DNA from: an uncultured virus (IMG/VR IMGVR_UViG_3300034735_000012)
Lineage: Duplodnaviria > Heunggongvirae > Uroviricota > Caudoviricetes
DNA: 20,000 nt
IMG/VR virus record: IMGVR_UViG_3300034735_000012
Direction: 5' to 3' (one strand)
The notes beneath the pieces were generated by a model. That model did not search any database and was not told the origin of the DNA. It worked only from the letters and a program-made list of their open reading frames with translations. The position numbers and the translations under genes were made by a program. Positions 2,729 through 20,000 of the stretch are shown piece after piece (position 1 is the first letter of the stretch; each line of letters starts with the position of its first letter).

Positions 2729-2766
2729 TAATTAAATTTAACTTAAATTAACTTAATGGATACAAT

Positions 2767-3732
2767 ATGTTTTTATCAGAAATTGAAAAATTACTAGGAA
2801 ATGATGGTTTTAGATATTTAGATATGGAAGCAGAATTTAATAAAAATGAATGTCTTTTTTATATTTATTTGATTGCGGAGAATATTAAGCAACCAGAGAT
2901 AAGATTTAAAGTTTCTTATACTACAAATTCTTTATATGAAAAAGACGTTAGCGACGTTGACGTTAAGAGAAAAAAATATCTGTTTAGCGTTGGTGGTGTA
3001 TGGTTTTTTGGTGTTTTTAGAAAACTCTATATTGAGAATGTAGATATCATAGATGATGTTTCTAGCAAGGACTCTTTAGGCAGAAATAAAGATTTCCTTA
3101 TTAGGAATTTAATATCTGACATTATCGTAAAAAAATATGATATGTCTGAGAAGTCGATAAAAGATTTGTTTTTATCCAGACCTGATTTTGAAAAAGAACT
3201 TAAATTTATCGCACATAAAAGTTATTACAAAAAGGGTTCAGAATTTAAAGGGGCATCTAAAAAACAAATTGAATACGGCTCAAGCATGAAATCTAAAAAA
3301 TTAATTTTGTTTGATAGATTAATGAGTGATTTAGATGTTTACAAAGATGAACGATTGAAAGAGTACGAAGTGGATCTTGATATCGACGATATCTATTATC
3401 GCTATAATGAGACAAAAGAGTACATTAATATAGCATATGAAAAAATAAAATCTGCAAAAGAAATGATCCTTGGGAATTTAGAAGCAAAGTTTTGGATTGA
3501 GTTAAAAGTTTTTGACTTGTTTGCTATTGATAAAAAGTATCGTAATAGAGAAAAAGATGTTAGTAATTTACCAGAATTTAATAGGGGCTATCGTACGTTA
3601 GTAATGAATGAAAGATATGGTCATAAACTAGACCGTAAGGCTGTATTTGAGAATGTATTTGATTGTGCTAGCGAATGGAATTTGACTGACGTAGAAGCAT
3701 TGAAAAATATGTTTTCTGGTAAAAAAGATTAA
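2767..3732 (+). CDS. Hypothetical protein (321 aa)
   Basis: Long ORF followed by a terminator; no recognised motif. Confidence 0.75.
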   Translation: MFLSEIEKLLGNDGFRYLDMEAEFNKNECLFYIYLIAENIKQPEIRFKVSYTTNSLYEKDVSDVDVKRKKYLFSVGGVWFFGVFRKLYIENVDIIDDVSSKDSLGRNKDFLIRNLISDIIVKKYDMSEKSIKDLFLSRPDFEKELKFIAHKSYYKKGSEFKGASKKQIEYGSSMKSKKLILFDRLMSDLDVYKDERLKEYEVDLDIDDIYYRYNETKEYINIAYEKIKSAKEMILGNLEAKFWIELKVFDLFAIDKKYRNREKDVSNLPEFNRGYRTLVMNERYGHKLDRKAVFENVFDCASEWNLTDVEALKNMFSGKKD

Positions 3733-3750
3733 AATAATTTTTAATTACTT

Positions 3751-3771
3751 GCCTAGTTTTCTAGGCTTTTT
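3751..3771 (+). terminator. Rho-independent terminator
   Basis: GCCTAG-TTTT-CTAGGC followed by TTTTT, about 20 nt after the stop of 2767..3732. Confidence 0.7.
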
Positions 3772-3893
3772 GTAGGAGTTAATATGTATATGAAAAATTC
3801 ATCTTGTCTTTTGATAATGTTAATCAGAATATTGCACTGGCTACACTGTTACGCATGGTTAGCAAAAAGTGCCGTAAAACCCGTTAATTTATT

Positions 3894-4025
3894 CTGTTCA
3901 CTGGGAATTTTTTTTAATAGATAATATTAGCCTGTACACTGGGAATTTTTTTTAATAGATAATATTAGTCTGTACACTGGTAGTTTTTTTTAATAGATAA
4001 TATTAGTCTGTACACTGGTAGTTTT
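3894..4025. repeat. 38-bp tandem repeat, about 3.5 copies
   Basis: Units start at 3894, 3932, 3970 and 4008; consensus CTGTACACTGG(G/T)A(A/G)TTTTTTTTAATAGATAATATTAG(C/T). Confidence 0.95.
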
Positions 4026-4031
4026 CAAGTG

Positions 4032-4071
4032 AGTTTGTGAATGATAAATCGTAAAATATCATTCACAAACT
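4032..4071. other. Perfect 15-bp inverted repeat (hairpin; possible terminator or binding site)
   Basis: AGTTTGTGAATGATA-N10-TATCATTCACAAACT. Confidence 0.85.
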
Positions 4072-4164
4072 GTTTTACCTAGTAGTTCACTTTTGAGTTA
4101 TGTATGTTTAATGCCATCACGGATAAGTCGATATCATCAAATAATTTTTGTGCTTCTGTATGGT

Positions 4165-4542
4165 TCATTTTTTACCTTTTTTGCATTGTTCTTCCGCTTC
4201 ATCAAGCGTTAAAGTTTGTAGATTTTTGAAGTGTAAAATGTCAAGCAAATCCATTAGAGTTTTCGGTCTTTTCATATCAATAGCACCATGTATTTCAGCA
4301 CATATAGCTGTAAATAGTATATTACCATCTACCGATTTTTTTGAACCTAATGCTAACTCTGATATTTTATACATTAAAGAGGCATCGTAAGATTGGCTTA
4401 CAATTTTTATAGCGAACTCAACATCAGTGTATAAAGCCTCCAATAGTGGTTTGATTCCTCTCATAAGTTTGCCGTAAAATAATTCTTTAACTTTGTTTAG
4501 CTTTTCTGTTTCGTTCATCATTTCTATGTCTATTGTTTCCAT
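4165..4542 (-). CDS. Hypothetical protein (~125 aa)
   Basis: ATG 4542 (METIDIEM) has an AAGGA RBS; the ORF track extends to 4611, overlapping the upstream gene. Confidence 0.7.
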   Translation of the reverse strand: METIDIEMMNETEKLNKVKELFYGKLMRGIKPLLEALYTDVEFAIKIVSQSYDASLMYKISELALGSKKSVDGNILFTAICAEIHGAIDMKRPKTLMDLLDILHFKNLQTLTLDEAEEQCKKGKK

Positions 4543-4573
4543 AAAGTTCCTTTTTGAAATATCTTCACTACTG

Positions 4574-5569
4574 TTACTTTTCTTTTGGCAACATATTAGG
4601 AGTTTTTTCAATTAGTTCTGGATATTTTTTATACATCTTAGAAAAATGCTCTTTTAGCTTAGATTTACTATATGAATAGCATTTCCAAACAGTATACTTT
4701 TGCTCAAGTATATTTTTTCTTTCAAAAAATGATAGTATTCCTCTAAAGATTTCTCTGGTTTCATCATCACAGCAATCTGAACCATAAAACATATTTATAG
4801 AAAGAAATATAAAAAAATCTCTTGATTCAGAAGTTTGAAATCCTATTTTATTTTCTTTCATGTAGTTAATAATAGCTAACATTTCAGGCAGTACTTTTCT
4901 ATGCCATTTTCTTACTGATTCTGGTAAAGTATTGCGAACATTAATGTATTCAGCAGGGTATCGCCTCCTGTTTTCCTCCTCTTTTTCTCTGTACATGCGA
5001 TCATCTTCTTCAAATTGATCTTCGTAAGGTACTCTCTCTGAGTACCTTATTTTTGATAGATTAAAGTAATCTTTTATGCAGTTTTCTTTTCTTTCATTGA
5101 ATTCAATTTGCCCTTTCTCTTTTCTAACTGTAAGTAGATTTGCGTGTGAGAAAAATGTTGGATTAAGAATAAATCCGTTGGCAGGAAACCTATCCTTTGA
5201 TGTTATAGAAGAAATAAAATAACCTCTAATATAATCTAGTTTCTCTAGCTTTTCTATTATTTCAAACGCTCTCTTTAAAGTGTATTTTTCTTCAAAATTG
5301 GCTATTTTTTCAGGCGTTATAGTTGCTTTTTTGAAGCTACTAGTAGAAGTTCTAAAATGTCCGTATTTTATACCAAGAGTCCTCTTTTGCATATCTAATA
5401 AAAAATAAAACTCCTCTTTTGATAAATCGTTTATTTTCTCTAGGTTTTTTTGTGTTTTATAGAATGTTTCTACAAAAACTTTTTTCAGTTTGTAATGTTT
5501 AATTAACGGTGTTGGGTTTAATTGCAAAATTTTACATGCCATATATATATCTCTGAATATCTTGTTCAA
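4574..5569 (-). CDS. Protein with N-terminal RepL-like winged-helix region and unknown C-terminal domain
   Basis: DLSKEEFYFLLDM...LEKLDYI...GFILNPTFF parallels the motifs of the neighbouring RepL-like proteins. Confidence 0.5.
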   Translation of the reverse strand: MNKIFRDIYMACKILQLNPTPLIKHYKLKKVFVETFYKTQKNLEKINDLSKEEFYFLLDMQKRTLGIKYGHFRTSTSSFKKATITPEKIANFEEKYTLKRAFEIIEKLEKLDYIRGYFISSITSKDRFPANGFILNPTFFSHANLLTVRKEKGQIEFNERKENCIKDYFNLSKIRYSERVPYEDQFEEDDRMYREKEEENRRRYPAEYINVRNTLPESVRKWHRKVLPEMLAIINYMKENKIGFQTSESRDFFIFLSINMFYGSDCCDDETREIFRGILSFFERKNILEQKYTVWKCYSYSKSKLKEHFSKMYKKYPELIEKTPNMLPKEK

Positions 5570-5601
5570 CTAGCAAGCTAGCAGTACTAGCTAGCTTATT
5601 T

Positions 5602-6150
5602 TCAAGTTCCTGTTTTGGAATTTGGTGCTAAAGTTTTTTCATTTTCAACCGCTCTCAAGACCCGTGCTTTTCTCTTTTTTTCAGTTTTTTCAGTTTTAAT
5701 ATCTAAAGAAAAGTTAGGTTCTTTTTTAGGTCTGTGTTCTATTTTAATAGTTAATGATTTAAATGTATCATTTTTAGTCCGTATATCATACAATGTGCCT
5801 ACGTTGAAATATTTTGGATTAACCATGTAAGTGTTCCTGCTTACATTCACTATTAATCCCGCTTTTCTTAGATCACAAAGGCGAGCTGCTAGCGAACCTA
5901 ATGAGTCGTAACCAACATCTTCCATCAACCGTTTTCTCAACGCTGAATTCAAATAGATCATATTGTGTTTATCTATTCGTGTTGCTAATTGCTGAAACAA
6001 TACAATTTCTTTTGGGGAAAGGTTTTTGTATGTAGCAATATCGAAGAAAAATGCTTGTACCCAGTTGTTCTCTGGGTCATTTCTCAAGCCATCTTCTTTT
6101 TTACTTATTTTTTTGTCTATAATCTGCTTAACTGTAAGTTTTTTTGTCAT
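5602..6150 (-). CDS. RepL-like replication/maintenance protein (winged helix)
   Basis: NLSPKEIVLFQQL...NMIYLN...RLCDLRKAGLIVNVSRNTYMVNPKYF matches the RepL-family signature (Y.vNP.yf). ATG 6150 has a GAGGTG RBS. Confidence 0.7.
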   Translation of the reverse strand: MTKKLTVKQIIDKKISKKEDGLRNDPENNWVQAFFFDIATYKNLSPKEIVLFQQLATRIDKHNMIYLNSALRKRLMEDVGYDSLGSLAARLCDLRKAGLIVNVSRNTYMVNPKYFNVGTLYDIRTKNDTFKSLTIKIEHRPKKEPNFSLDIKTEKTEKKRKARVLRAVENEKTLAPNSKTGT

Positions 6151-6187
6151 ATAAGACACCTCAATTGTTACTTGCTTGCCGTAATGT

Positions 6188-6216
6188 ATAATAATGATTA
6201 TACAGTTTTTTGTCAA
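6188..6216 (-). promoter_or_regulatory. Sigma70-type promoter for the 6150 gene, overlapped by an inverted repeat
   Basis: Minus strand TTGACA (6216-6211), 17 nt, TATTAT (6193-6188). Inverted repeat GTATAAT-AATG-ATTATAC at 6186-6203. Confidence 0.65.
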
Positions 6217-6270
6217 CATTAATTACTCTGATTCAGTAATAATAAAATAAATATTAAAAAATATTATCGA

Positions 6271-6324
6271 ATTTCGTAACTGTTTTCGTAATGATTTTCG
6301 TAATGATTTTCGTAATGATTTTCG
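6271..6324. repeat. 12-bp tandem repeat (iteron-like)
   Basis: TTTTCGTAATGA at 6283, 6295 and 6307, partial copy at 6319, degenerate copy at 6271. Confidence 0.95.
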
Positions 6325-6431
6325 CAAAAAATCCAAAAAACCTTTTTAACTTTTTGATATCTATCAAAAGCACCGTATTTATGCGGTTTACAGACTATAA
6401 ACAACAAACGACAGTTTATGTCTATAGCTTG

Positions 6432-6522
6432 AGATCATTACCCACTCCGTAATGATCTTCGCCACATCATTACCCACTCCGTAATGATCTCCGATAGATC
6501 ATTACCCACTCCGTAATGATCT
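6432..6522. repeat. Three 27-bp palindromic repeats with a 32-bp period
   Basis: AGATCATTAC-CCACTCC-GTAATGATCT at 6432, 6464 (one mismatch) and 6496; 5-nt linkers TCGCC and CCGAT. Confidence 0.95.
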
Positions 6523-7053
6523 TATTTTGTAAAAATCTTCTACACACGGTATAAACAAAGGGCTACAGCCGATTTTTCGCTTCCCTTGGGCTGTTGATCT
6601 GTTCTCTGCTTTTTTCATTACGTTAGTTCTCCGAGATTCGCATTCGGTCATATCACGTTACTAGCCCGCCGAAAATGTATAATGGTATTTGAGTCTTTCC
6701 CAAAGGGTTGCGAGTAATTTTAAAATCTGCTGGGGCAGATGTTTAAAATGACATACGCATTAAAAACTAAAAGATAGGTATTTTTTGAAGCTTTATTTCA
6801 AATAGCTTTAAAAAATATTTATTGATAGGTAGGTCATAGATATGTTGTTGATATCTAAATTGTTCGTAAGGTTTATAACAGCCAAGTGATTTTTTCATAA
6901 ATTTTCCGTAATCTGAAAAACTCCAACAGCTTTAAAACCCTTATAAAATATGCTATTTACTAGTAGTACCATTGTACCTATTTGGCTATTGGACTAACTA
7001 AAATAGGTAGCTACTCTTAGTAAAACAAGCACTAAAAATTACAAGGAATTTTC

Positions 7054-7581
7054 ATGGTAAATGATAAATCAGATAATGAAAAGCAATATCTGCTTGATAT
7101 TATTAATAATGTTTCTGTATATTTAAAAAACACTAAATTTAAAAATACAGGATTTAATATGAAATTCATCGACACACTTAGACCAGAGACGACAAAATTG
7201 CTTGGTCGTTTTGATGTAACTCCTGAATTTTTATTGAATTTAGTTTTGATAATTAGAATGATGGATATCCCAGAAAGTAAAGTTTGCTTAATACTGTGTT
7301 TATTTGATGAATTAACAGATAAAGCTGTTTTATTATTAGATAAAAACGTACGTAAACGGATAATGCGTAAATCAAATTATACAAATCAGACAGTAAAAAA
7401 TAACTTGAAAATGTTTGTTAGAAAGAAATTTATGTTACGAATTGCTAATAATCATTATGAATTCAATCGAGAGTTGTTTGGTATAGGTAATTATGATTTT
7501 ATAAAAAATACTGGTACGTATCGATTAGAGGTTGATATTGAATCTGAAATAGTTTCTATCAACACCAATTTGTCTAGGTAA
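7054..7581 (+). CDS. RepL-like winged-helix protein (second paralogue)
   Basis: VLLLDKNVRKRIMRKSNYTNQTVKNNLKMFVRKKFMLRIANNHYEFNRELFG aligns by eye with MIYLNSALRKRLMEDVGY...YMVNPKYF of the 6150 protein. AAGGA RBS. Confidence 0.65.
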   Translation: MVNDKSDNEKQYLLDIINNVSVYLKNTKFKNTGFNMKFIDTLRPETTKLLGRFDVTPEFLLNLVLIIRMMDIPESKVCLILCLFDELTDKAVLLLDKNVRKRIMRKSNYTNQTVKNNLKMFVRKKFMLRIANNHYEFNRELFGIGNYDFIKNTGTYRLEVDIESEIVSINTNLSR

Positions 7582-7623
7582 TTGAATTTGCTAAACAGAA
7601 AAAACCCTAAACACGGAGTGTAG

Positions 7624-8028
7624 ATGAGCTTTGACGAAAAATATGAAAATTTCAAAAACAATTTAGATTTAGATATTAATAATCTAACTATTTTTTTTGA
7701 AAATAAAGAAGATTGTGAGACATTTGATAAAATTCTGAGTGTACTGGACAAAGGTTCGCCAGAAGATGATGGAATGATTTTTTCATACCTTGAGGGTGCT
7801 AAGGCAGGTATCCGTGAATTAATTAATTCTGAAAAAGGGAACATGAGAATGTTTTATGATGTATTAGATAAGCATCATCAGGATTGTTATTTTGAAAATG
7901 TAACTACAGTAATGCAGAATAATTACATCAATGTTTGCCTGTATATTTACAGGAAGCATTTCAAAGAAAATAAAGATATTGATAAGGATATTGTTAAAAA
8001 GTTGAATGAGAAGTATCTAAAAGAATAG
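7624..8028 (+). CDS. Hypothetical protein (134 aa)
   Basis: ORF with GGAG RBS; N-terminus resembles 8197..8559. Confidence 0.75.
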   Translation: MSFDEKYENFKNNLDLDINNLTIFFENKEDCETFDKILSVLDKGSPEDDGMIFSYLEGAKAGIRELINSEKGNMRMFYDVLDKHHQDCYFENVTTVMQNNYINVCLYIYRKHFKENKDIDKDIVKKLNEKYLKE

Positions 8029-8196
8029 TATTTCGTGTCTAACTCAAGAATATCGTTTAACTTTATTTAAACTTTAGTATTTGTATAACTTTTGCCAAAT
8101 CGTTTAAATTTGGCATGTTTTTGAAAGGATTAGATCAAATGTGTGAAGTGCGTAAAGAGACCAATGGAAATTATAACTTCGAGCAATCTTTTCCAG

Positions 8197-8559
8197 TCAA
8201 TCAATCTCAATCGGCATGATTGCCAGTATAGCTTCTTTTGTATTTTTATTACCCTTTGCATAATTAACAACTATTGTTTTTGCAAAACTGAGATACATTT
8301 TCATTTCCAACTCGCCACATATTTTTTTCATTGTAAACCGATCATTTACACTGTTAAATAAGTCATCATAGTTTTCTTTAAATATACCTCTTATAAAGGT
8401 TTCATATCTGTAAATAGCTTTATTTATACGGCTATAAAATTCATAACTATTTTTAATTTTTAATTGTGCATCTTCGTCTGGCAATGTTTCTTTAAAAATA
8501 TTTTCAACACTTAAATCAACATTATTTATAAAATTGATAATTTGTTTTTTAAAATTCAC
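8197..8559 (-). CDS. Hypothetical protein (120 aa)
   Basis: GTG start with GGAG RBS; TATAAT upstream (8597-8592). Confidence 0.7.
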   Translation of the reverse strand: MNFKKQIINFINNVDLSVENIFKETLPDEDAQLKIKNSYEFYSRINKAIYRYETFIRGIFKENYDDLFNSVNDRFTMKKICGELEMKMYLSFAKTIVVNYAKGNKNTKEAILAIMPIEID

Positions 8560-8631
8560 TATATCAGCTCCGTTACAACTTTGAAGTTTTTATTATACAA
8601 CTGAAATTGAAAAAGTAAAAAAATCGCAAAA

Positions 8632-8660
8632 TTGACACCGTCGTTGGCAAGATTTACACT
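8632..8660 (+). promoter_or_regulatory. Sigma70-type promoter with no long downstream + ORF
   Basis: TTGACA (8632-8637), 17 nt, TACACT (8655-8660). Confidence 0.55.
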
Positions 8661-8772
8661 GTATATCTCAATTATTTCATGTTTAATTCGATTGAATCAT
8701 TAGAGGGTAAAATGCGTGCCATACATGGTGATTTTTTGATAAAAAAAACTTTAGAAAAAAAATATTTTTTTT

Positions 8773-9087
8773 TCAATCGCTAATTGCTTGAGACAAAAAA
8801 TAAGTGCCTTTGCTTAGTTTGTAATTCATATTTATATTGCTAACACAACTTCGTTTAAATCTGCGTATGATCGTTCCTTCTGTGTCTCTCTTGCTGTCAA
8901 AACACTCTGCAAGATTATCTAAAAACTGCTCTCTAATGCTTTCTACTGAGCTTTTAAAATTAGTTTTATTTTCTATACACTTTTGTTTGAATAATTCTTG
9001 ATCTTCTTCTGGAACTACTAAAGCTAGATCAGCATAAGATGTTATTTTAATGTTATCAATTGTTTTTCTGTATTCAATTCTATTCAT
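8773..9087 (-). CDS. Hypothetical protein (104 aa)
   Basis: ATG-started ORF at the distal end of the helicase operon. Confidence 0.65.
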   Translation of the reverse strand: MNRIEYRKTIDNIKITSYADLALVVPEEDQELFKQKCIENKTNFKSSVESIREQFLDNLAECFDSKRDTEGTIIRRFKRSCVSNINMNYKLSKGTYFLSQAISD

Positions 9088-9149
9088 TTTTACGTCTCTC
9101 TTATTGTTGTTACGACTGAAAAAAATATCAGCCGTGGTTGTTAGGTGAA

Positions 9150-9365
9150 CTACCCCTTTAACTCTTTTTCAGTATCGCTAGCTTGTTTTTTTTCTTCTTC
9201 AAGTTTTGCAAAGCTGCTTAAGACGATTAAACAGTTTGCTTTATACGATTCAAACAGCTTGAATATTTCATCTGTATTTGATCCTTCAATAGCCTCAAGT
9301 TCGTCAGTTAAAGTGTTGTACATTGTTTCTAATACTAGCTTTTTTAGTATAGCATTGCTTTTCAT
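9150..9365 (-). CDS. Small hypothetical protein (71 aa)
   Basis: ATG with AAGGA RBS directly after the helicase stop. Confidence 0.65.
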   Translation of the reverse strand: MKSNAILKKLVLETMYNTLTDELEAIEGSNTDEIFKLFESYKANCLIVLSSFAKLEEEKKQASDTEKELKG

Positions 9366-9374
9366 TTGGCTTCC

Positions 9375-10715
9375 TTAGCTTGTTAGCATTTTTAGTATAT
9401 CAGTTAAAGCAAATAATTTATTATTTAGTGAATTATACACATCAACTTCTTTTGTGTTTGTTGCTGATATTCTAATAATTTCAGTTTTTTCAGTTTGAGA
9501 TATTCTGCATATTCGGGCATTAACTTGATTATAAATTTCTGCTGAATATGTTGGAGAAGACCAAATTAAACTTGTAGCTTTAGTTAGAGTTAATCCATGA
9601 CTGCAAGATTTGCTATGAATAATTAAAACTCTATATTTACCCTTTTGAAATTTTTCTACAATTTTTGATCTTTTTTCCATCGGAACATTACCTGATATAT
9701 AAGCATTTGACAATTTCTTTTCTTTTAGTTGCTTTTGTAGTTCTGGTAACTGATGCCTCCAATTGTAAACGATAATTGTATGCTCCCGTTGATTAGCTAA
9801 TTCTACAATCAACTTATATCTTTCAGGGCATATGCTTATAGTATCGCTAGATTCGTCATAAACAGCTCCTGTTAAGATTTGCAATAATTTATTTGTTTTA
9901 GTCGCTGAATGCAAACTATTTAATTTTACCTCCTCTTTGTTTATTTTAATCCCTATGTCATATTTTAGATTTTCATATGCCGATCTACATTTTGTAGATA
10001 ATTCGTGGTAATAATCAGTTGTTATTTGGCTTGGTAAATCAACACAATCTCTTAATTTAAATCTAATTGATATATCACTTATTTTTTGAGCAACTCTTTC
10101 TCTAGCATCTATTTTATCCTTATATTCAGTAAAATATGGATTTTTCTTTGTGTAGCGATACAAGTCTCTAAAGCCCATGATAAATTTACCTAGACGTTTC
10201 CCACCATCAATTATTTTTGTAGGGTAGAACAAATCTTCAACTGAATTGTTTATCGGTGTGCCAGAGAGCAATAAAAGATTTTCAACTTCTTCAACAACTT
10301 CTTTGATTGCTCGTGATCTTTGTGCCGTATGATTCTTATATGCAGTACATTCATCGATTATAACGTGTGATATATTTTCAAGAGATAATTCATTCTCAAT
10401 AATAAATTTGCTAAATTCATGGGAACAAATTAATATATCTGCACTTGATTTATTGTAACGATCAATTTTTCGTGCTTTAGTACCTGTTAAGATTTCATAC
10501 GTTCCGCCGAACTTCTTGATGTCGTTACCCCATGACGCTTTTAAAATAGATACTGGTGCAAACACTAACATTTTTTTCCGATTTTTAGACGCAAAAAAAG
10601 CGTCAATAGACGCTAATGTTTTGCCTGTACCTGCATCAGATAAATTAAATGAGCGTTTTTTGTTTAACCAAAAATCACTCATTTTTTTTTGATGACTGTA
10701 AAGTGCTATTTTCAT
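9375..10715 (-). CDS. Phage SNF2-family (SF2) DNA helicase
   Basis: Q-motif LYSHQ, Walker A DAGTGKT, DECT (DExx), SGTP, HGLTLT and QVNARICRISQ (motif VI). Confidence 0.92.
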   Translation of the reverse strand: MKIALYSHQKKMSDFWLNKKRSFNLSDAGTGKTLASIDAFFASKNRKKMLVFAPVSILKASWGNDIKKFGGTYEILTGTKARKIDRYNKSSADILICSHEFSKFIIENELSLENISHVIIDECTAYKNHTAQRSRAIKEVVEEVENLLLLSGTPINNSVEDLFYPTKIIDGGKRLGKFIMGFRDLYRYTKKNPYFTEYKDKIDARERVAQKISDISIRFKLRDCVDLPSQITTDYYHELSTKCRSAYENLKYDIGIKINKEEVKLNSLHSATKTNKLLQILTGAVYDESSDTISICPERYKLIVELANQREHTIIVYNWRHQLPELQKQLKEKKLSNAYISGNVPMEKRSKIVEKFQKGKYRVLIIHSKSCSHGLTLTKATSLIWSSPTYSAEIYNQVNARICRISQTEKTEIIRISATNTKEVDVYNSLNNKLFALTDILKMLTS

Positions 10716-10721
10716 AGTTTT

Positions 10722-11378
10722 TTAGTAAACTCTAAAGGTATTTTCTTCTATGTTTTTAGTAATATCTTTATATATATTTCTAGCTGATTCGAGTAATTTC
10801 TTATCGCATAGAGCATAAAAACTGAACTTAGGTAGATACCATGTTCCCTTTGTATTTGTACGGCTTTTTGTTGCTAAATTCCAAATGCCTGCATATCGTG
10901 GGGCATTTTTAGGGTGTATCATTTGTATCTTTGTATTTAATGCTTTGTTTACTTGTAATCTACTTTTTGATAAGTAAAGCATTACTGGGTGATCTATATT
11001 ATTTTCTTCATCGAGAAGTAATAATATGTTTTGACCAGTTTCAACTATCGTTGCTTTCTCTCCAGAGCTTTCGATATATGCTTTTGCGTCATCATTAGTT
11101 TTAAATGTACCCAACAATTTATCGCCTTGATCTTCGCTCCACACGCTGAACACGGTCATATAATGTAAGGGTATAAAATTCATATCTTCAAGAGATAAAT
11201 CTCTTGACGATAAAAATATTTCTCCTGCTTTAGCGTTATCTATTTCGTCTAAGGTAGGGGATAGTTTTTCAAGTATCTTGATATAGGGTATCTGAAAATC
11301 ATCACTTGTAAGACTTTCATTTCCATCATTAGCAAATTCAGAATAATCAATTTCTGCAATCTCTTTAGAATCAGTCAT
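10722..11378 (-). CDS. Putative phage single-stranded DNA-binding / replication protein
   Basis: DDFQIPYIKILEKLSP...AKAGEIF and NTKGTWY resemble SSB-like proteins of siphovirus replication modules. ATG 11378 has an AAGGAG RBS; adjacent to the helicase. Confidence 0.55.
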   Translation of the reverse strand: MTDSKEIAEIDYSEFANDGNESLTSDDFQIPYIKILEKLSPTLDEIDNAKAGEIFLSSRDLSLEDMNFIPLHYMTVFSVWSEDQGDKLLGTFKTNDDAKAYIESSGEKATIVETGQNILLLLDEENNIDHPVMLYLSKSRLQVNKALNTKIQMIHPKNAPRYAGIWNLATKSRTNTKGTWYLPKFSFYALCDKKLLESARNIYKDITKNIEENTFRVY

Positions 11379-11379
11379 A

Positions 11380-11751
11380 TTAAGCTCCTTTTTTGAATGA
11401 TAATTTAACAAGATCAATCATCTCAATGCCATCGATTTGTTCATTTTCTGACGCTAATTCGTCCAATAAGGTGCTACTAATTCTAGTATTGATTAATGCA
11501 GTATTTTTGCTATTGAAGACATAGTTACAAAATGCTGTTTTATCAACTACTTTTGCAACAGGTTTTTTTGATATAGATACTAAACAACCGTCTGCTTCAA
11601 CTCTAGTAAATCCATTGTTTTCTAATTCGTCTAAGATTGCAGTTGTTATTTCTGCATCCTTGGTGGTTAGTTCTTTTGTTTGTTTTGCTAGTTCTGCTCT
11701 AGCATTTTTAATTGATGAGAGTTCATTAATTAATGTACGCAACAATGACAT
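11380..11751 (-). CDS. Conserved phage replication-module protein (coiled-coil N-terminus)
   Basis: Coiled coil followed by VVDKTAFCNYV...RIS...IDGIE, typical of the small gene preceding SSB/helicase genes in tailed phages. AAGGA RBS. Confidence 0.6.
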   Translation of the reverse strand: MSLLRTLINELSSIKNARAELAKQTKELTTKDAEITTAILDELENNGFTRVEADGCLVSISKKPVAKVVDKTAFCNYVFNSKNTALINTRISSTLLDELASENEQIDGIEMIDLVKLSFKKGA

Positions 11752-11807
11752 AAAAAGTCCTTTTTAAAAATAAAAAATAATTATCTTCTTACTAGAAGAT
11801 AACTACT

Positions 11808-11835
11808 ATTATACTTTTAAAAAAACCAATTGCAA
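11808..11835 (-). promoter_or_regulatory. Sigma70-type promoter of the helicase operon
   Basis: Minus strand TTGCAA (11835-11830), 16 nt, TATAAT (11813-11808). Perfect 9-bp inverted repeat TTATCTTCT-TACT-AGAAGATAA at 11781-11802 just downstream. Confidence 0.6.
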
Positions 11836-11854
11836 GCATTTATTTATTTTATTT

Positions 11855-11887
11855 CAACTATATTGCAACTATATTGCAACTATATTA
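11855..11887. repeat. 11-bp tandem repeat x3
   Basis: CAACTATATTG at 11855, 11866 and 11877 (last copy ends in A). Confidence 0.9.
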
Positions 11888-11895
11888 CAGTTGCG

Positions 11896-14800
11896 TTAAA
11901 TCTCGTAAATGCTAGTGGTTGTCTTTATTTTTGCACTTACTTTTTTAGCTGTTTCAACGATTTCCGTATCTCTTATATCACTAGCTCTTGCGGTTGGGGC
12001 TGTTTTTGTTGGATCAGATAAGCCAACATCAACAACATTTGAATCACGCTCTAAGTCATCAATTTTAGCAACCGTTTTAGGAATATTTTTTACAACACTA
12101 GCTGTTAATGTTTTGCTATATAAGTAGGTGTATGTCTCTTGAGGAACTAGTTTATCTTTTTTAATAAAGGTATCAGCTTTATTAATATCAGACACATTAT
12201 CTACATGACTTGGTAAAGTATTTTCATTTAATTCAGTTGTTCTGGTTAGATTATATTTAGTACCTGATTTTGATAATATGTAATCATAATCGCTATAATA
12301 AATATCTTCGCCATTATTGTTCAAGTTAGGGTTTTCTATTTTAGTAATGCTACCTCTTAAAAGGTCTAAGTGTACGACTTCTTTTTGGGAGGGTACTCCT
12401 ACTATTAAATATAGGCCATCATTTGAGCAATCTATTGAGCAATTAACATCTTTAGTAAAGGATAATACTTTAGTGCTTACATTACTATGTAGTAGCCTTA
12501 AATGGACTTCTTCATCATTTTTTATAAAATAAATATATTCTATATTTTCAGACGCTACTACTTTATTTTTTATATTAGTTATAGGGTCTACAGTTAATAA
12601 CTGCATATCCTTAGTATTATCAAGGGGTGTAGAAACTAAAGTGTCATTATTGACAGTATATAAGAGGTAGGTAGAATTTTTAGCTAGTTGGATATACTGC
12701 TGTTCTGTAGTTGTCGCTAAATACTCTTTATTAAACTCTTTGTAATACGTTCCGTATTTTTTAATATATGTAACAATATTCAGGTAATTACCAGACGCTA
12801 AGTTTATAACGGCTTTTACATTTTTTATTGTTACAGTCTTATTAACAAGGCTAATTTCAACATCTTGTATAACTCTAGCGTCAACTTTAGATAAATTATA
12901 TAAGGCCACTTTGTTATCTTCTGATATTACAACTTTTTTAGTATCTACATTAGGGTCTATTGTTGTTTTAAATGTTTCTATTTCAGCATAGCCATTACTT
13001 GATAATAAATAAGTTTCAACTGCATCATCTGTTTTAACAGATATATATTTACCCTCTAAATCTATTTCTAAATCATTTGGATTTTTTATAGCTGTTACTT
13101 GGTAATGTAGCTCTTTTTTATATGTTGCAGGGGTAGTTGGTTGCTCAACATCTACCTCTTTAATGATAATAATACGGTTTCCGCTATAATCATTGCGTTT
13201 ATGCTTAGGGTGTATCTTATAACGGTTATTTTTTATCTTAGAGGGTGTTTTTTTAGTAGCACGTGTTACAGTAGTTGATTTGTTTTCAGCATTTTCATCG
13301 ACTATTGCTAATATAACACTCCCATCTTTATTAGATACAATTTTATCTGTAAATAGATGGCTATTATCTAAAGTAAGTTTTAAAGTTCCTTTTGTTAATA
13401 CTTTATTAGTACTATCTACAGATATAGTTATATTTTTATCTGGTGTAGTAGTAGTTTTATTTGTTCCTGATGCAATAAATTTAGCCTTTGTATCTTCTAA
13501 ATTGTTTTCTGCAAACGCTGTTTTTAGCGTCATAGGTACGGCTTTTTTTACATTTGTACTTAACTTAGTTAAGTCATTAAAAATAATAAAGTTAGTAGGA
13601 TCAGAATTAAATATAACTGCAACTTTTCCGCCACTACTTGATACTACATATTTTGTTGCATCTTTAATTAATATTTTGCTTTTATTATTTCTAATAAGGA
13701 TAGTTTTATTAGTATTATCTACTAATATACGCAAATTATTTTTTGCACCTGTGTGCATATATTTATATGCTGTTTTTGTGCTATCTTGCTCAATTAATTT
13801 AACATTATAAAACTCATATATATTATTTACAGCGTGGACTTTTATAAGATTACCCTGTAAAATTGATTCTATATTTTTGTTTCTAACTTTTTTATTTGCA
13901 TCAATGTCTTCAAGATCTTCTGTTAGCCAGTTGTATTGTTGTTCTGCTGTGTTTGTTGGCTGATCTTTTAGCTTATACTTGTTTAGCACTAATACATATT
14001 TAGACACTGTTTTATTAAAGATATCATTTAAATAAAGATCACAATTACTGCCAAAAATAACTTTATTTTTAATATTTGCAGTATATGTATTATCAAAAAC
14101 ACAAAAGGGAGTTTCTACTATAGGTTTCAATCCTTTACGTAGCTTATAAACATATATATTAGCTGCTTTTCTAGCACCACAAGCCATATAAGCTGAATTA
14201 TCTGCTATATCTATATTCATATAATCATCTAAAAATTCATATCGAATATCAAAAGAGCTAGGTATATTTATTTGATTTATTGTTTGAGTTAACTCATATT
14301 GCAATGATTTATCTCTATATGTATAAACAAATATATCTCTTGTAGTAGCAGCAGTGGCTATAAATTGATGTCTATTGGGTATAAACTTAACAAATGCACC
14401 AAAAAACGAATGTGGTACTTGTGAATCATCTTCAATTATTTTAGTTAGCACTGTATGTTTAGCAGTATCGTTAGGTAATAATTTAAGAGTTTCTAAGCTA
14501 TTAATTAACTCGCTTGGAGAGCTAATAATAAAACTAATTTGTTGATCTATATCAAACAATGCTACCTTTTCTAACGATGTACCCACTACACAATATTTTT
14601 CATCAGAAGAAAAACTTATATCAGTTACTGTGTATGGATACTTGCCAAATAGATCACTGATATCTAACTCAATATGTAGCTTATCTTTATTATATACAGA
14701 TATTTTTCCATCGGACTTACCAAAACAAACATAATTGCCATAAGGGCTTAACTCATGCTTTATTATTGGGGTAGTACCTACTATATGGTATAAATATCTA

Positions 14801-17800
14801 TTTAAAATAGATTGATTTAGAACAGTGCTTTCATTATTTAAGTTTTTAATAAATAATAAATCATTGTTTTCAGGCATAGATTGTATTCTGCTTGCAATAG
14901 CTAAGGTATCACTATTTGATAAGGCTATTGAGGCTTTTTTTGAATGTGTTTGCGTGCCGTATTTGTCATCTATCATTAAAGATGAATCAGTTTTAATTGT
15001 TTCTTCTTGTCTTGATAACAGCCTGCTTAATCCCTTGCGGTTAGTAGCTAACCACTGGCTATTTGAATCCTTATATCCATAGCCGTTTGAAAATGATACT
15101 GATTTTTTAAGTAATGGTTTAAGTTTGCCAGATCTTGGATTTAATTCATAAAGACCACTTGACGTAGCTACTAAATCCTTATCATTATCATTAAAAGCAA
15201 ATCCGTTTTCTGTATTTGTATTATCAGTTACTGTTAACATACCAGAATTAATATCTAGTTTTGTTAAACCATCATTTTCTGTTCCAATCCATATGTTTTT
15301 GTTTTTATCCATATATCCAAAGCCATTTTTTACACTTTTAGTATCGGTAGTTGTTATTTGTATTTTAAGGTCTCTGTCTATATCATAAACGTGTAGTTTA
15401 TCTTGCTTTTTATCTAATAAGAGTAAATAATTTTTCTGTAAAAATGCTGTATCATAAAGTTGAATCCTACCAACTTTAACCTCAAAAATATTTGTTCCTG
15501 TATTAACCCCATCTATATGCTCTTTTACAGTAGCAGTTGAATCAGCGTTCCCTTTTTTAAGTAAAACTACTGCATTAACCTTTTGTTGTTTTTGATTTAC
15601 ATAACTAGATATTAAAACATCATCAAATAAAGGCGTTCCTTTATTATTTTCTGTTGTTAGCAAACTCCATTGTTTATTTTTACAATAATAATAGGTTAAA
15701 ACATCTTTATTTTTATTTGATGCTATAGCCATATCCGAGCTTATAGCAACAATATCTCCGAAATTATTAACACCTGTATTATTAAATTTATTGGAATTGC
15801 CAATTATATCTATTTCTATACTATTTTTTGTCTTATCTCCAATAATTAAATAATTGTCATTTTTATATTCTTCTCTTGTAGAATAATCATATGTTTGTTT
15901 TATGTTTTTTAATATACGTAAATTACGCTTATCCATATCAAACTCTAATAAAGAGTTACCTACTCTTATTTGAGTGTCTTTTGTTGTTAATAAATCTGCT
16001 ATTTTTAATGTATTATCTCTTAATTCATTTCTATACATAGACACAAAAGTATTATCTCTTATATCCGATCTTATAACAGTGCTATTGTATGCAGATACGC
16101 TAAGAATATTATTTTCTAATGTAGCTTTTCCTTTTAGGTTGGTGTCTGGTATAAGCATTGCACTATTTATTTTTTCAGTGCTTTTTATATTAGTGTTTAA
16201 TAAATCAAACGTATTATATATTCCAGTTTTACCCGAAAATGAGACTAACGTATCATTGATTATATCTATATCTGATATATCAGATATATCACTTACATAT
16301 TTTTCTTTTTTTGCTCTATATACTCTTATATTATTATCATAAGCCGCAGGATTTTTATCTTCCAATTTGTAAAGCAAAATACCTTTATGTAATTGCATAA
16401 AAGTAACGCCTTTAGTTTTTTCTACTTCTTCTATTGTTTGAATTTCTTTCCATATTCCTTTTATTTTTTTATAAATATATACAAATTTTACTTTACTACT
16501 TGATGAAAATGAACCAGCACTTCCAGAAGTCATTCTTAATCCTGTAGAAACTGCAAGAATGTCATCTTCCATGCATACATTAGTTATTGCTAAATCATTT
16601 GATGTGTTAAACTTTAAAGAAGATTTGTAAACCCATTTTAGATTTGAGTTATCAAATTCATAAAGTGTTATATATGAACCGTTATTTTTGTAATCTTCTC
16701 GTAATGCCAAATCAGTATCAGTAAAAGCATATGCAGTATAATTTAACGCATTTTCATATCTTTTGTTTCCGCCAGAATGGATTGTTACAAAATCCTGAAT
16801 AAACACAAATTCATTTTTATTTTCATCGAAATGATATCCTTTTATAGAACAGTCTATTAAGAATCCCCAATGCTCTAAAAAATCATACATATCGCAACCA
16901 AACTCTATGAAGATAAGATGTTTATTTGTCATCTTACAATTAACAACTGAATCTCTGCCATAGTGAATTTTTTCTTTTATCTTCCAAGGATAGCCTGATC
17001 CATAATTTCTAACATAAATCGATGGTGCATCATTTGATCCGCAATAACTAAGCAAAACTTTTCCATCGTATACGCAAGCATTGTATAACTCATTATTATG
17101 AGTGTATTCAGAATATTCCCATTGATCTGTACTTTCATTATATATACGTATATCTGCATGTGTGTCGTAGCCTCTACCTCCTCCTGTAAATGCTAAAACA
17201 TTTCCATACATGCTAACAGTACAGATATTATACTTTCCAGGGCCAGAAAAACTTGAATGTTTATTCCAAACATATTTTTTAGTGCTAGCATCATATGACC
17301 TTTTAAACATATAAACTACGCCGTCAACAAGTATTCCACACCAATTACCATAAAAAGTTAATCCGTTAATTACATTATTGTTTTTATAGACCATAAACGA
17401 GGATTCAAAAACAAATTGCTCTGAATTAGTAATAAATGGATTTATTTTTATTACTCCATTTTTTGATATTGCATCTGTGTCTTGATTTAAAGAAACAGAA
17501 TGGCCATAATTTATATTTTTTTTATCCATTAAATATAAGCTACCTACACCACCAAACCAAGAGTTTCCATCATCATCTGTAATTCCAAAACTATCACTGA
17601 CATCAAGTTGTCCTGATTTATAGGTTGTGCTTATTTCAACTATTTTATTATGTACATCATCATATTTTGCTAGCCTTTTATTTTTTACTACCCATATTTG
17701 CCCAACACCATCTGTAAACCAATAACTACCTAAAGTTTTTGCATTTGCATCAACAATAGTATCTGTTTTTGCGACTGGATCAAATATTGCTAATCCGTTA

Positions 17801-20000
17801 GTAGTACCTATAATAAGTTTTCCATTGTTATCTTTAAAACCAAAAAAACCTTGTGAAATTTGTTTTGTTGTTATTTGAGTTATTTTCCCTGTGCTTTTAT
17901 CTATTTGCCCGATACCTTGAGATAATGCAATATATAAATCATTATCATCTTCAAGAAAAAATCCTGTTCCTGTTGTATCTGTACTAGTTAATGTAATATT
18001 TACTGGGTCAAATACAAGCAACCCTGCACCTGGGGAAGAAATAAAATATTTATTTGGGTTTTTTGTAGCTATAAAATGACCGTTTTGTAAGTTTTGTATT
18101 TCTTTTTTTATTAGCACTTTATTTGCTGTATCAAATAAATATAACCCTGATTGAGTGCCTATATACAGCACTGAATTACCTGCTGTTATAACTTCAAAAC
18201 CGAAAGCATTTTGAATTGGATATGAACTATTTTTCTTAATAGCTAATTCTAAAGATTTAGTTTTAGTATTTAATTTATAGATACCGCTAGAATTACTACC
18301 CAGATAAATATCCCCATTTGCAGTTTTAAATGCAAATCCATTTGTTAAATTAACTCCTCCTAGTTGAGTTAATATTTTATTATTTTGATCCACTCCATTT
18401 TTTACTGTTATTAATGACCAAGCACCATTTACAAATCCATATTTATAGCATGATTCGTGCAATGGAGATCCCACAAGAAGTTTATCATCTAAAATTGCAA
18501 CACTTTTGCCAAAATCATTTTTGTTATTTGTATTTGTTATGACATAAGGAGTTACATTACCTTTTTCATAGACATAAACAGTTGAATCACGATACTGTCC
18601 TATAGCTATTTTGTTATTTACATAATCAATATTAATATCTAAATCTTTTATTTTGTATACTTTTTCTTTATTGTTTGCTTTATCTTGCACTACAAAAACA
18701 TCTGCATAATGCTTATAATCAGCAGAGTTATATATATTATATATCTCGTTGTGAGTAGTTAAGTCTTTTTCTGTTATATATACAGTTAGCTTATTATCGC
18801 CTGTTCTTTTATCATATGCTTTATATTCGTGCAGATCATAATCTGGATATCTAGTATAGTATGGAACTTTTTTAGAATGTAATATACTAGGGGCAATTGT
18901 TGTTCCAGTGCCTAGTAAACTTACGTAGTTCCCAGTTTTATTTGGTTGTTCTTGTATGTCTGTAGCTGTTATCTTTATATTTCTCTTAGCTTGGACTATA
19001 GGGTCTGGTAGCTTTGCTAGCGGTGCTACTGTTTCCATAATACTGTTAAAGTTAGTATTATCTTTTACTTCTTGATTGTTATAATAATGCTTGCCGTCTG
19101 TTGTGTCTAAGTACACTTGTTTTTTTGTTATTATTGTATTCAGTCGACCAATACCACTGTCAGATGTACCGATCCACGATTGTCCTTGTGCGTCCACGAA
19201 GCCGAAGCCCTGCACCACATTTGTGCTATCTGTTATCGTTAGTTTACCAGTAGTTGTATTCAGTAGACCAATACCACTGTAAGTTGTACCGACCCACGAT
19301 TGTCCTTTTGCGTCAACAAAGCCGAAGCCACTCCCCATACGTTTGCTATCTGTTATCGTTATTTTACCAGTAGTTGTATTCAGTCGACCAATACCAATGC
19401 CAGCTGTACCGACCCACCATTGTCCTTTTGCGTCAATAAAGACGAAGCCCCCAAACACACTTTTGTTATCTGTTATCGTTATTTTACCTGTGGTTGTATT
19501 CAGTCGACCAATACCACTGCTAGATGCACCGACCCACGATTGTCCTTTTGCGTCCACGAAGCCGAAGCTATCCTCCACATTTGTGCTATCTGTTATCGTT
19601 ATTTTGCCTGTGGTTGTATTCAGTCGACCAATACCATTTCTACTTGTACCGACCCACGATTGTCCTTGTGCGTCCACGAAGCCGAAGCCCTGCACCACAT
19701 TTGTGCTATCTGTTATCGTTATTTTACCAGTAGTTGTATTCAGTCTACCAAAACCAATACCAACTATACCGACCCACGATTGTCCTTTTGCGTCAACAAA
19801 GCCGAAGCCATTCCACATATTTGTTCTATCTGTTATCGTTAGTTTACCTGTGGTTGTATTCAGTCGACCAATACCTTTTCTACCTGTACCGACCCACGAT
19901 TGTCCTGATTTATCAACAAAGGCAAAACCAGAACCCATATCTATCCTATCTGTTTGCGAGAACGTACCACCTTTTACAGTTGTTATAGTAGTGCCAAAAC
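11896..20000 (-). CDS. Giant multi-beta-propeller protein (about 2,700 aa visible, 5'-truncated), probable virion adhesin / receptor-binding or surface protein
   Basis: The frame stays open upstream of ATG 19938 to the window edge (FGTTITTVKGGTFSQTDRID). Contains Reg_prop-like blades (D..G..W.GT..GI), FG-GAP-like blades (DFGKSVAI...LVGSP) and WD40-like segments. Confidence 0.8.
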   Translation of the reverse strand, partial: FGTTITTVKGGTFSQTDRIDMGSGFAFVDKSGQSWVGTGRKGIGRLNTTTGKLTITDRTNMWNGFGFVDAKGQSWVGIVGIGFGRLNTTTGKITITDSTNVVQGFGFVDAQGQSWVGTSRNGIGRLNTTTGKITITDSTNVEDSFGFVDAKGQSWVGASSSGIGRLNTTTGKITITDNKSVFGGFVFIDAKGQWWVGTAGIGIGRLNTTTGKITITDSKRMGSGFGFVDAKGQSWVGTTYSGIGLLNTTTGKLTITDSTNVVQGFGFVDAQGQSWIGTSDSGIGRLNTIITKKQVYLDTTDGKHYYNNQEVKDNTNFNSIMETVAPLAKLPDPIVQAKRNIKITATDIQEQPNKTGNYVSLLGTGTTIAPSILHSKKVPYYTRYPDYDLHEYKAYDKRTGDNKLTVYITEKDLTTHNEIYNIYNSADYKHYADVFVVQDKANNKEKVYKIKDLDINIDYVNNKIAIGQYRDSTVYVYEKGNVTPYVITNTNNKNDFGKSVAILDDKLLVGSPLHESCYKYGFVNGAWSLITVKNGVDQNNKILTQLGGVNLTNGFAFKTANGDIYLGSNSSGIYKLNTKTKSLELAIKKNSSYPIQNAFGFEVITAGNSVLYIGTQSGLYLFDTANKVLIKKEIQNLQNGHFIATKNPNKYFISSPGAGLLVFDPVNITLTSTDTTGTGFFLEDDNDLYIALSQGIGQIDKSTGKITQITTKQISQGFFGFKDNNGKLIIGTTNGLAIFDPVAKTDTIVDANAKTLGSYWFTDGVGQIWVVKNKRLAKYDDVHNKIVEISTTYKSGQLDVSDSFGITDDDGNSWFGGVGSLYLMDKKNINYGHSVSLNQDTDAISKNGVIKINPFITNSEQFVFESSFMVYKNNNVINGLTFYGNWCGILVDGVVYMFKRSYDASTKKYVWNKHSSFSGPGKYNICTVSMYGNVLAFTGGGRGYDTHADIRIYNESTDQWEYSEYTHNNELYNACVYDGKVLLSYCGSNDAPSIYVRNYGSGYPWKIKEKIHYGRDSVVNCKMTNKHLIFIEFGCDMYDFLEHWGFLIDCSIKGYHFDENKNEFVFIQDFVTIHSGGNKRYENALNYTAYAFTDTDLALREDYKNNGSYITLYEFDNSNLKWVYKSSLKFNTSNDLAITNVCMEDDILAVSTGLRMTSGSAGSFSSSSKVKFVYIYKKIKGIWKEIQTIEEVEKTKGVTFMQLHKGILLYKLEDKNPAAYDNNIRVYRAKKEKYVSDISDISDIDIINDTLVSFSGKTGIYNTFDLLNTNIKSTEKINSAMLIPDTNLKGKATLENNILSVSAYNSTVIRSDIRDNTFVSMYRNELRDNTLKIADLLTTKDTQIRVGNSLLEFDMDKRNLRILKNIKQTYDYSTREEYKNDNYLIIGDKTKNSIEIDIIGNSNKFNNTGVNNFGDIVAISSDMAIASNKNKDVLTYYYCKNKQWSLLTTENNKGTPLFDDVLISSYVNQKQQKVNAVVLLKKGNADSTATVKEHIDGVNTGTNIFEVKVGRIQLYDTAFLQKNYLLLLDKKQDKLHVYDIDRDLKIQITTTDTKSVKNGFGYMDKNKNIWIGTENDGLTKLDINSGMLTVTDNTNTENGFAFNDNDKDLVATSSGLYELNPRSGKLKPLLKKSVSFSNGYGYKDSNSQWLATNRKGLSRLLSRQEETIKTDSSLMIDDKYGTQTHSKKASIALSNSDTLAIASRIQSMPENNDLLFIKNLNNESTVLNQSILNRYLYHIVGTTPIIKHELSPYGNYVCFGKSDGKISVYNKDKLHIELDISDLFGKYPYTVTDISFSSDEKYCVVGTSLEKVALFDIDQQISFIISSPSELINSLETLKLLPNDTAKHTVLTKIIEDDSQVPHSFFGAFVKFIPNRHQFIATAATTRDIFVYTYRDKSLQYELTQTINQINIPSSFDIRYEFLDDYMNIDIADNSAYMACGARKAANIYVYKLRKGLKPIVETPFCVFDNTYTANIKNKVIFGSNCDLYLNDIFNKTVSKYVLVLNKYKLKDQPTNTAEQQYNWLTEDLEDIDANKKVRNKNIESILQGNLIKVHAVNNIYEFYNVKLIEQDSTKTAYKYMHTGAKNNLRILVDNTNKTILIRNNKSKILIKDATKYVVSSSGGKVAVIFNSDPTNFIIFNDLTKLSTNVKKAVPMTLKTAFAENNLEDTKAKFIASGTNKTTTTPDKNITISVDSTNKVLTKGTLKLTLDNSHLFTDKIVSNKDGSVILAIVDENAENKSTTVTRATKKTPSKIKNNRYKIHPKHKRNDYSGNRIIIIKEVDVEQPTTPATYKKELHYQVTAIKNPNDLEIDLEGKYISVKTDDAVETYLLSSNGYAEIETFKTTIDPNVDTKKVVISEDNKVALYNLSKVDARVIQDVEISLVNKTVTIKNVKAVINLASGNYLNIVTYIKKYGTYYKEFNKEYLATTTEQQYIQLAKNSTYLLYTVNNDTLVSTPLDNTKDMQLLTVDPITNIKNKVVASENIEYIYFIKNDEEVHLRLLHSNVSTKVLSFTKDVNCSIDCSNDGLYLIVGVPSQKEVVHLDLLRGSITKIENPNLNNNGEDIYYSDYDYILSKSGTKYNLTRTTELNENTLPSHVDNVSDINKADTFIKKDKLVPQETYTYLYSKTLTASVVKNIPKTVAKIDDLERDSNVVDVGLSDPTKTAPTARASDIRDTEIVETAKKVSAKIKTTTSIYEI
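19133..19953 (-). repeat. Seven coding 120-bp tandem repeats (40-aa propeller blades)
   Basis: The marker CAGTCGACCAATACC (or a near match) recurs at 19141, 19261, 19381, 19501, 19621, 19741 and 19861. Confidence 0.97.

Follow-up and report, generated by a model that had tools for sequence, protein, structure and literature searches.

How two short loops came to differ so strongly among tandem repeats that are otherwise nearly constant is the question raised by the IMG/VR record IMGVR_UViG_3300034735_000012, an uncultured virus of the class Caudoviricetes. A stretch of 20,000 nucleotides of this record was analysed (hereafter the window), in which the repeats are found on the minus strand, within a giant open reading frame (ORF). 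The original prediction, drawn from the letters of the window, had described a seven-bladed propeller and had attributed the variation of its loops either to a process resembling that of a diversity-generating retroelement (DGR) or to strong diversifying selection. According to the reading favoured here, which we regard as probable, the seven units are blades of a recently amplified Reg_prop-type propeller, located at or near the N-terminus of a giant protein that a phage-like element encodes, and their loops were diversified by mutation, exchange and selection, with no DGR involved. Recent duplication together with selection on the binding face explains the pattern better than a retroelement mutator.

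The blade array and its predicted fold

The array, a predicted seven-bladed beta-propeller of the Reg_prop type, extends over 19111..19950 of the minus strand, an assignment based on its repeat period, reading register, nhmmer, AlphaFold and Foldseek. Tandem Repeats Finder detected a period of 120 with 6.4 copies and 85% matches at 19134-19906, and the codon alignment delimited, from 19950 to 19111, seven in-frame units of 120 nt (40 amino acids) each: u1 (19950-19831), u2 (19830-19711), u3 (19710-19591), u4 (19590-19471), u5 (19470-19351), u6 (19350-19231), and u7 (19230-19111). Searches with the units using nhmmer recovered exactly the seven copies of the array (E 1e-33 to 1e-38). The final eight codons of u7 are decayed.

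Two loops were placed in each unit by the codon alignment and the structural model, both read on the minus strand. Loop A comprises unit codons 22-25, the turn between strands B and C, and lies at 19876-19887 (u1), 19756-19767 (u2), 19636-19647 (u3), 19516-19527 (u4), 19396-19407 (u5), 19276-19287 (u6), and 19156-19167 (u7). Loop B comprises unit codons 2-8, which join strand D to strand A of the following blade, and lies at 19927-19947 (u1), 19807-19827 (u2), 19687-19707 (u3), 19567-19587 (u4), 19447-19467 (u5), 19327-19347 (u6), and 19207-19227 (u7). From u1 to u7, the loop A peptides are TGRK, IVGI, TSRN, ASSS, TAGI, TTYS, and TSDS, and the loop B peptides are RIDMGS, RTNMWN, STNVVQ, STNVED, NKSVFG, SKRMGS, and STNVVQ, exactly as they had been read before.

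The earlier description of seven 120-bp units that are constant except for two loops was confirmed by the repeat finder, the codon alignment and the counts of changes. Of 120 unit columns, 42 were variable and 78 invariant, and the minimum number of nucleotide changes was 35 in the 33 loop positions versus 21 in the 87 framework positions (binomial p = 4.8e-8). Over the first 32 codons and all 21 unit pairs, mean amino acid identity was 0.86 for the framework and 0.29 for the loops; that of the whole units ranged from 0.56 to 0.91 (mean 0.67), the lowest pairs lying just below 60%, and DNA identity ranged from 0.72 to 0.93 (mean 0.81). As for the number of blades, seven units are indeed present in the window, but the ORF is still open at base 19998, which makes both the count and the closure of the ring provisional. 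A half-blade upstream of the public start codon (ATG at 19938) that might close the propeller is not claimed, as the ungapped match of this segment to the unit tails was only 3/16 residues.

The base composition of the array was also recorded. The kilobase that holds it has a G+C content of 0.43, and the remaining window is AT-rich (0.27-0.33). Third-position G+C content was 0.35 in the array (19111-19950) versus 0.17 in the rest of the same gene (11899-19008), codon use in the array and in the rest of the gene was 9/16 versus 5/85 for TTC and 7/10 versus 5/191 for CTG, and the consensus unit has 14 GC-ending codons out of 40 (p 0.005 against 0.17). This suggests that the founding blade originated in a source richer in G+C, or that it is too recent to have drifted to the composition of the element.

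Modelling with AlphaFold and an alignment of 30 sequences predicted four strands per 40-residue unit, with a predicted local distance difference test (pLDDT) of 92.6 and a predicted template modelling (pTM) score of 0.88. The strands of the model are A (F-x-F-V), B (S-W-V-G-T), C (G-I-G-R-L-N), and D (K-I-T-I-T-D). Run on the single sequence, AlphaFold returned this strand pattern too, with low confidence (pLDDT 46.9); in the alignment-based model, strand 4 of the last blade is not confidently predicted. The best Foldseek matches in the PDB were the Bacteroides proteins BT4663 (4a2m, 4a2l), BT4673 (3ott) and BT3049 (3v9f), with E 2e-13 to 1e-10; among seven-bladed single propellers, virginiamycin B lyase (2z2n) matched with TM 0.68/0.67 and the designed v13WRAP-T (7big) with TM 0.68/0.69. 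The propeller fold originally proposed is supported by both programs, and the array is predicted by the model to fold as a beta-propeller with a constant scaffold.

Sequence searches led to the same family. With phmmer, the sole match among PDB sequences was 3v9f, the sensor domain of BT3049 (E 1.7e-4), and 3156 matches at E <= 1e-3 were obtained against 1.84 billion representatives. Reg_prop (PF07494) was above the cut-off in 13 of the 15 homologues scanned, among 150 matches listed; most of these combine Y_Y_Y, kinase and receiver domains as hybrid two-component sensors. The closest small homologue (P0014), on a 2.2-kb contig of an uncultured gammaproteobacterial bin, was considered as an indication of the host or of the blade donor and was set aside as too weak to name either.

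In the model, the four residues of loop A, which follow W-V-G, form the B-C turn that separates strands 2 and 3 of each unit, and the 6-7 residues of loop B, which precede G-F-G, join strand 4 to strand 1 of the next unit. When four strands run up and down in a sheet, the B-C and D-A' connections must share one side, and A-B and C-D emerge on the other; by this geometry both loops would lie on one face of the propeller, and the single binding face that had been proposed, with a structural model as its check, stands by the strand order of the model. By the usual convention, that face is the 'top', or ligand-binding, face of a propeller, and the homologous propellers of Bacteroides hybrid two-component sensors bind oligosaccharide signals. 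The positions of loops A and B are also unconserved across the Reg_prop family (consensus 'W.GT...GL').

Selection on the loops and rival explanations

Nei-Gojobori counts were made over all 21 unit pairs, giving the proportions of synonymous (pS) and nonsynonymous (pN) differences. In the framework, pS was 0.148 and pN 0.066, and the scaffold is under purifying selection. In the loops, pN was 0.432 (0.50 in loop A and 0.39 in loop B) and pS 0.158, so that loop pN was 2.7 times loop pS and 2.9 times framework pS, and amino acid changes in the loops accumulate about three times faster than silent changes. Counting events conservatively, as the distinct residues minus one per codon, at least 30 replacements were found in 25.8 nonsynonymous loop sites versus no fewer than 8 silent changes among the 22.2 synonymous sites of the framework (p 0.0012). 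Strong diversifying selection, the second of the two processes proposed at first, fits these values (loop pN 0.43 versus framework pS 0.15).

The same excess accounts for the codon pattern that had drawn attention to the array. Codon 2 of loop A is NNT in 7/7 units, codon 3 is NNC in 4/7 and codon 4 is ANT in 6/7, and in loop B NNT and RTG stand at codons 3 and 4; each of these counts agreed with the earlier reading. Since neutral divergence is low, the third bases keep their ancestral letter and the first and second bases carry the selected changes, and an excess of amino-acid-changing substitutions on young duplicates therefore produces 'NNT' columns without a retroelement.

The blades are mosaic. 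Units u3 and u7 have no differences in loop B and one difference in the following 39 nt, and differ at about 6 of the 12 nt of loop A; the nearest loop A neighbour of u7 is u6 (2 differences), and that of u3 is u1. Units u2 and u6 are identical over 39 framework nt and show 6 differences in loop B. The four-gamete test was failed by 16 of 28 informative site pairs, a result that recurrent mutation at selected sites could also give. Such mosaics suggest that the blades exchanged short patches, or that selected sites mutated repeatedly.

One 40-residue blade, with strands A, B, C, and D, was multiplied in tandem, and in DNA its copies retain 72-93% identity. The pattern would then have been built by ordinary mutation, by the exchange of short patches among blades (through slippage, gene conversion or unequal recombination), and by selection favouring loops unlike one another, and the 14 loops may form a single asymmetric ligand-binding surface around the mouth of the propeller. 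By analogy with related propellers, this surface probably binds a host glycan or protein.

Several points weigh against this reading. The sample is small, with seven non-independent units and 11 loop codons, and recombination among units can inflate tests of the dN/dS type (ratio of nonsynonymous to synonymous rates). Gene conversion or codon constraints might depress framework pS, in which case unconstrained loops would look selected. The Reg_prop score of the array itself in Pfam is 10 bits (E 1.2) versus a gathering cut-off of 20.4, and no relative of the non-repeat part of the giant protein was found in the collections searched, residues 320-2700 having matched only their own protein among proteins of similar length. 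Additionally, the search for a reverse transcriptase (RT) and a template covered 20 of the approximately 70.7 kb of the contig.

The explanation that survives best beside selection, although we hold it to be unlikely, is that the loops are merely unconstrained, drifting at the surface of the protein while the scaffold, silent sites included, is kept alike by gene conversion and structural constraint. Both loops are unconserved across the Reg_prop family, the mosaics show that conversion-like exchange occurs, and the sample is small, all of which would agree with drift. However, neutral loops should not exceed the silent rate, and the loop pN given above exceeds both silent rates (2.7 and 2.9 times, p 0.0012); moreover, conversion tracts in the scaffold would also homogenise such short loops unless variants were retained.

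Within the reading of amplification and selection, a stronger form may be considered, to which we give a rather low probability: the array would be an actively evolving phage recognition module, reshuffled frequently in short patches, with sets of loops and numbers of blades differing among strains or even within one population. If so, the phage would gain a propeller-based, DGR-independent way of retargeting a giant host-interaction protein, a viral counterpart of the repeats of fungal NOD-like receptors (NLRs).

Another active but non-DGR diversification, such as frequent programmed shuffling of loops or blades from donor copies inside or outside the array, appears improbable. The sharp clustering of differences would suit it (loop B identical in u3 and u7, about 6/12 nt different in loop A, and 1 difference in the 39 nt between), as would two ambiguous observations, unitigs of sequencing run X1 that branch within the array and blade-like contigs with other loop letters in a 2025 sample (X2). 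Against it, no donor cassettes were found in the window and no recombinase or dedicated machinery stands beside the gene, and ordinary homologous exchange between 120-nt repeats suffices for the mosaics.

The population data consisted of Logan contigs, not of reads. Run X1 covers the window at a depth of about 12 and fragments to unitigs inside the array, the pieces from X2 are 80-96% alike (those at 18024-18564, from a related element, differ in 11 of 276 and 18 of 289 letters), and X3 and X4 gave next to nothing. The variants and joints within the array (19523, 19571-19575, 19689 to 19581, and a loose end at 19821) are indistinguishable from the contig of one unit aligned to another unit, which the 80% likeness allows. 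A 150-nt unitig of X1 with a depth of 14.7 matches the end of the array (19061-19193) with 17 mismatches and 6 gaps, and a unitig of the same run branches at 19821, inside loop B of u2; these could represent a strain variant, a copy beyond the window, or a misplaced unit contig.

A DGR elsewhere on the element, rewriting the loops from an adenine-rich template, is very improbable. In a DGR, a template is copied into the target and only the template adenines are randomised. The test for adenines was made across the seven units. At 15 of the 42 variable columns no unit has A, and A occupies 28 of the 78 invariant columns, including 5 of the 10 invariant columns of the loops (codon positions 2.1, 3.1, 3.3, 22.3, and 25.1). 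Columns with consensus A vary in 11 of 39 cases versus 31 of 81 for the others (Fisher p = 0.31). The bias towards A at variable sites that a DGR-like process implies, the first of the two processes proposed, was therefore not found. Third positions also vary, in codons 3-4 of loop A and codons 5-6 of loop B, and silent differences (T/C and T/G) dispersed along the framework group the units into two types, which a single template could not produce.

Searches for the components of a DGR in the 20-kb window of the approximately 70.7-kb contig were negative, as none of the 17 other ORFs matched RT families at E <= 0.01 and PHROGs gave none. No template copy of the units was found in 1-19100 by nhmmer (--max) or blastn (word size 7), the best match, with E 0.3, lying in the same ORF. 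A DGR would further have to serve 14 separate variable regions, each of 12-21 nt, within a propeller at the N-terminus. In its favour are the NNY-like codons (codon 2 of loop A and codon 3 of loop B), the part of the contig beyond the 20 kb searched, and the fact that phages do carry DGRs (PMC8144416). The case shows that NNY codons of 'DGR-like' appearance can arise with no retroelement, in young tandem duplicates in which replacement exceeds silent change, and that the discriminating test is the presence of invariant adenines beside variable non-adenine columns.

That the order or content of the blades is an artefact of short-read assembly is scarcely credible: the Logan contigs of the best run do break inside the array, where the long contig ends at 19203 with only short unitigs beyond, and this small run comprises 70 million letters at a depth of about 12, but the longest exact repeat within the array is 68 nt and no 70-mer is repeated, which makes assembly through it plausible, the frame is kept through the units and 2400 further codons, and the public gene call is identical.

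The giant protein and its genomic surroundings

The giant ORF that carries the array was delimited by an ORF scan at 11896..19998 of the minus strand, with 2700 codons in the window and an open 5' end. The array forms its N-terminal part, within the first 300 of at least 2680 residues, and the frame is kept across the seven units and then for 2400 codons more. The public gene call, a singleton from a contig of 70,718 nt, is an identical protein of 2680 amino acids that starts at the ATG at 19938. The ORF remains open upstream of this ATG (19939-19998), and AGGA stands 5 nt before it. No membrane span is apparent in the giant protein, the highest hydropathy over 19 residues being 1.2.

Two further runs of Reg_prop-like blades were detected by motif scan, both on the minus strand. 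The second run, old and diverged, occupies approximately residues 550-830 (17509..18351), with blades at residues 565, 612, 651, and 728; this part showed weak Pfam matches to FG-GAP_2, SGL and Kelch, all below the cut-offs, and the sole weak nhmmer echo of the unit (17879-17917) was within the same ORF. The third run is short, at approximately residues 1560-1690 (14929..15321), with blades at residues 1569, 1609, and 1649, and its matches to Reg_prop (14 bits, E 0.061) and SGL (E 0.014) were both below the cut-off. The protein outside the array also showed weak Kelch-, FG-GAP- and WD40-like signals.

When the whole protein and five pieces of it were searched, nothing in Pfam was above the cut-off, and PHROGs gave no family; Y_Y_Y, HisKA, HATPase_c, Response_reg, helix-turn-helix (HTH)/AraC, NACHT and NB-ARC had no match in the whole protein or in the five pieces. 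In a protein atlas, two parts outside the array gave weak leads to propeller families only (scores 0.82-0.89, below the guide value of 0.9). Residues 280-900 had no relative among shorter proteins; both protein homologue searches scored the approximately 8000 candidates that share most words, so that distant relatives may be missed. Related loci were absent from the viral contigs searched, and of 44 pattern matches in metagenome contigs none was confirmed. We infer that the giant protein is a large multi-propeller binding protein of the phage, the young N-terminal propeller being the part that is now changing, and a giant multi-propeller protein without relatives is a candidate host-interaction factor.

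Directly downstream of the giant ORF, and also on the minus strand, is the gene for a Gp157-like protein (11380-11751), followed by those for a Pam3 gp34-like protein (10722-11417; PF23977, E 1e-37) and a SNF2-type helicase (9375-10715; phrog_62, E 1e-93). Together, 9375-11751 constitutes a recombination and replication module. An excisionase-like HTH protein is also encoded in the window, and most other ORFs are without a family match. The genes besides the giant ORF look like the early or replication region of a phage. A search for relatives based on the helicase yielded one 30%-identical locus on an 11-kb contig (L001), which was discarded for its remoteness and its shortness.

Between the giant ORF and the Gp157-like gene, the intergenic stretch (11752-11895) contains three 11-nt direct repeats at 11850-11886 (Tandem Repeats Finder, period 11, 3.4 copies) and a promoter-like TTGCAA-16-TATAAT on the minus strand, from 11835 to 11808, with 10/12 agreement; this is weak, with 1 site versus 1.8 expected in shuffles. 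An AT-rich hairpin followed by a T run was also noted there, before the Gp157-like gene. A separate promoter may serve the recombination genes downstream.

Scans of the window for tRNAs and Rfam families found none, and megablast of the whole window against phage and plasmid collections gave no match. Contigs of run X1 also break at 3766 and at 3928-3996, with variants in the length of a T run (TT or GTT inserted after 3766), and the TT insertion is present in a second sample as well; a homopolymer or repeat thus varies here, in the intergenic region that separates convergent genes.

Comparison with known systems

The targets of DGRs, such as those of phage BPP-1 and Treponema TvpA (FGS / C-type lectin fold), share with the array a phage context and a constant scaffold on whose surface a few positions vary strongly. 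As described in PMC8144416, their variable regions are C-terminal and have C-type lectin folds, and at least 75% of mismatches are opposite template adenines. By the features given there and in PMC7159879, the array is unlike them: it is an N-terminal beta-propeller and not a C-terminal variable region of C-type lectin fold, its differences are not confined to adenines, and the window holds no RT or template.

The propellers of the Bacteroides Reg_prop sensors (BT4663, 4a2l/4a2m; BT4673, 3ott/3va6; BT3049, 3v9f) function as ligand-binding domains and are the best structural matches of the array, and one of them is the only sequence match in the PDB. The blade motif is common to both, with a hydrophobic strand, D..G, W.GT, three variable residues, and GL. 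Unlike these sensors, the giant protein has no Y_Y_Y, histidine kinase, receiver or AraC domains and no membrane span, and the usual Reg_prop architecture, two propellers and Y_Y_Y followed by kinase or regulator modules, was not found in it. The array is also distinguished by its location in a phage-like element, by blades that are near-identical rather than diverged, and by its sub-cut-off Pfam score.

An unrelated public protein of 2672 amino acids (P0003), on a 47.8-kb contig, has three arrays of near-identical Reg_prop blades with differing loops, so that this style recurs in the Reg_prop blade family. The three arrays are separated by long repeats of Ig-like appearance. In the third, two blade types alternate almost unchanged, and this array is a very recent two-blade amplification.

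Recently amplified propellers have been described from most propeller families, all major lineages and every kingdom, viruses among them (Pereira and Lupas 2022, PMC9218822). Like these and the WRAP propellers, the array shows tandem amplification of a single blade, and pairwise identity of its blades is above the 60% by which such propellers are recognised (PMC9218822), the lowest amino acid pairs (0.56) being just under this value. A search by terms in the main text of that paper found neither a Reg_prop lineage nor variability of loops.

The closest regime is that of the WD40 repeats of fungal NLRs (HET-D/E/R, NWD family, Podospora), which are approximately 85% identical and undergo shuffling inside single genes as well as among genes (Dyrka et al. 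2014, PMC4986451). As described there, these repeats undergo concerted evolution, with positive selection at four positions of the interaction surface. The array agrees with this regime in its similar repeats, its variation on one face and its excess of replacement over silent change. On the other hand, its blades are of the Reg_prop and not of the WD40 type, no NACHT/NB-ARC nucleoside triphosphatase or effector domain accompanies them, the context is that of a phage, and the repeat-induced point mutagenesis of fungi does not apply to it. Recently amplified propellers with a selected variable face are thus already known, and no new kind of mechanism is involved; to these the present finding adds an example of the Reg_prop type in a phage-like element.

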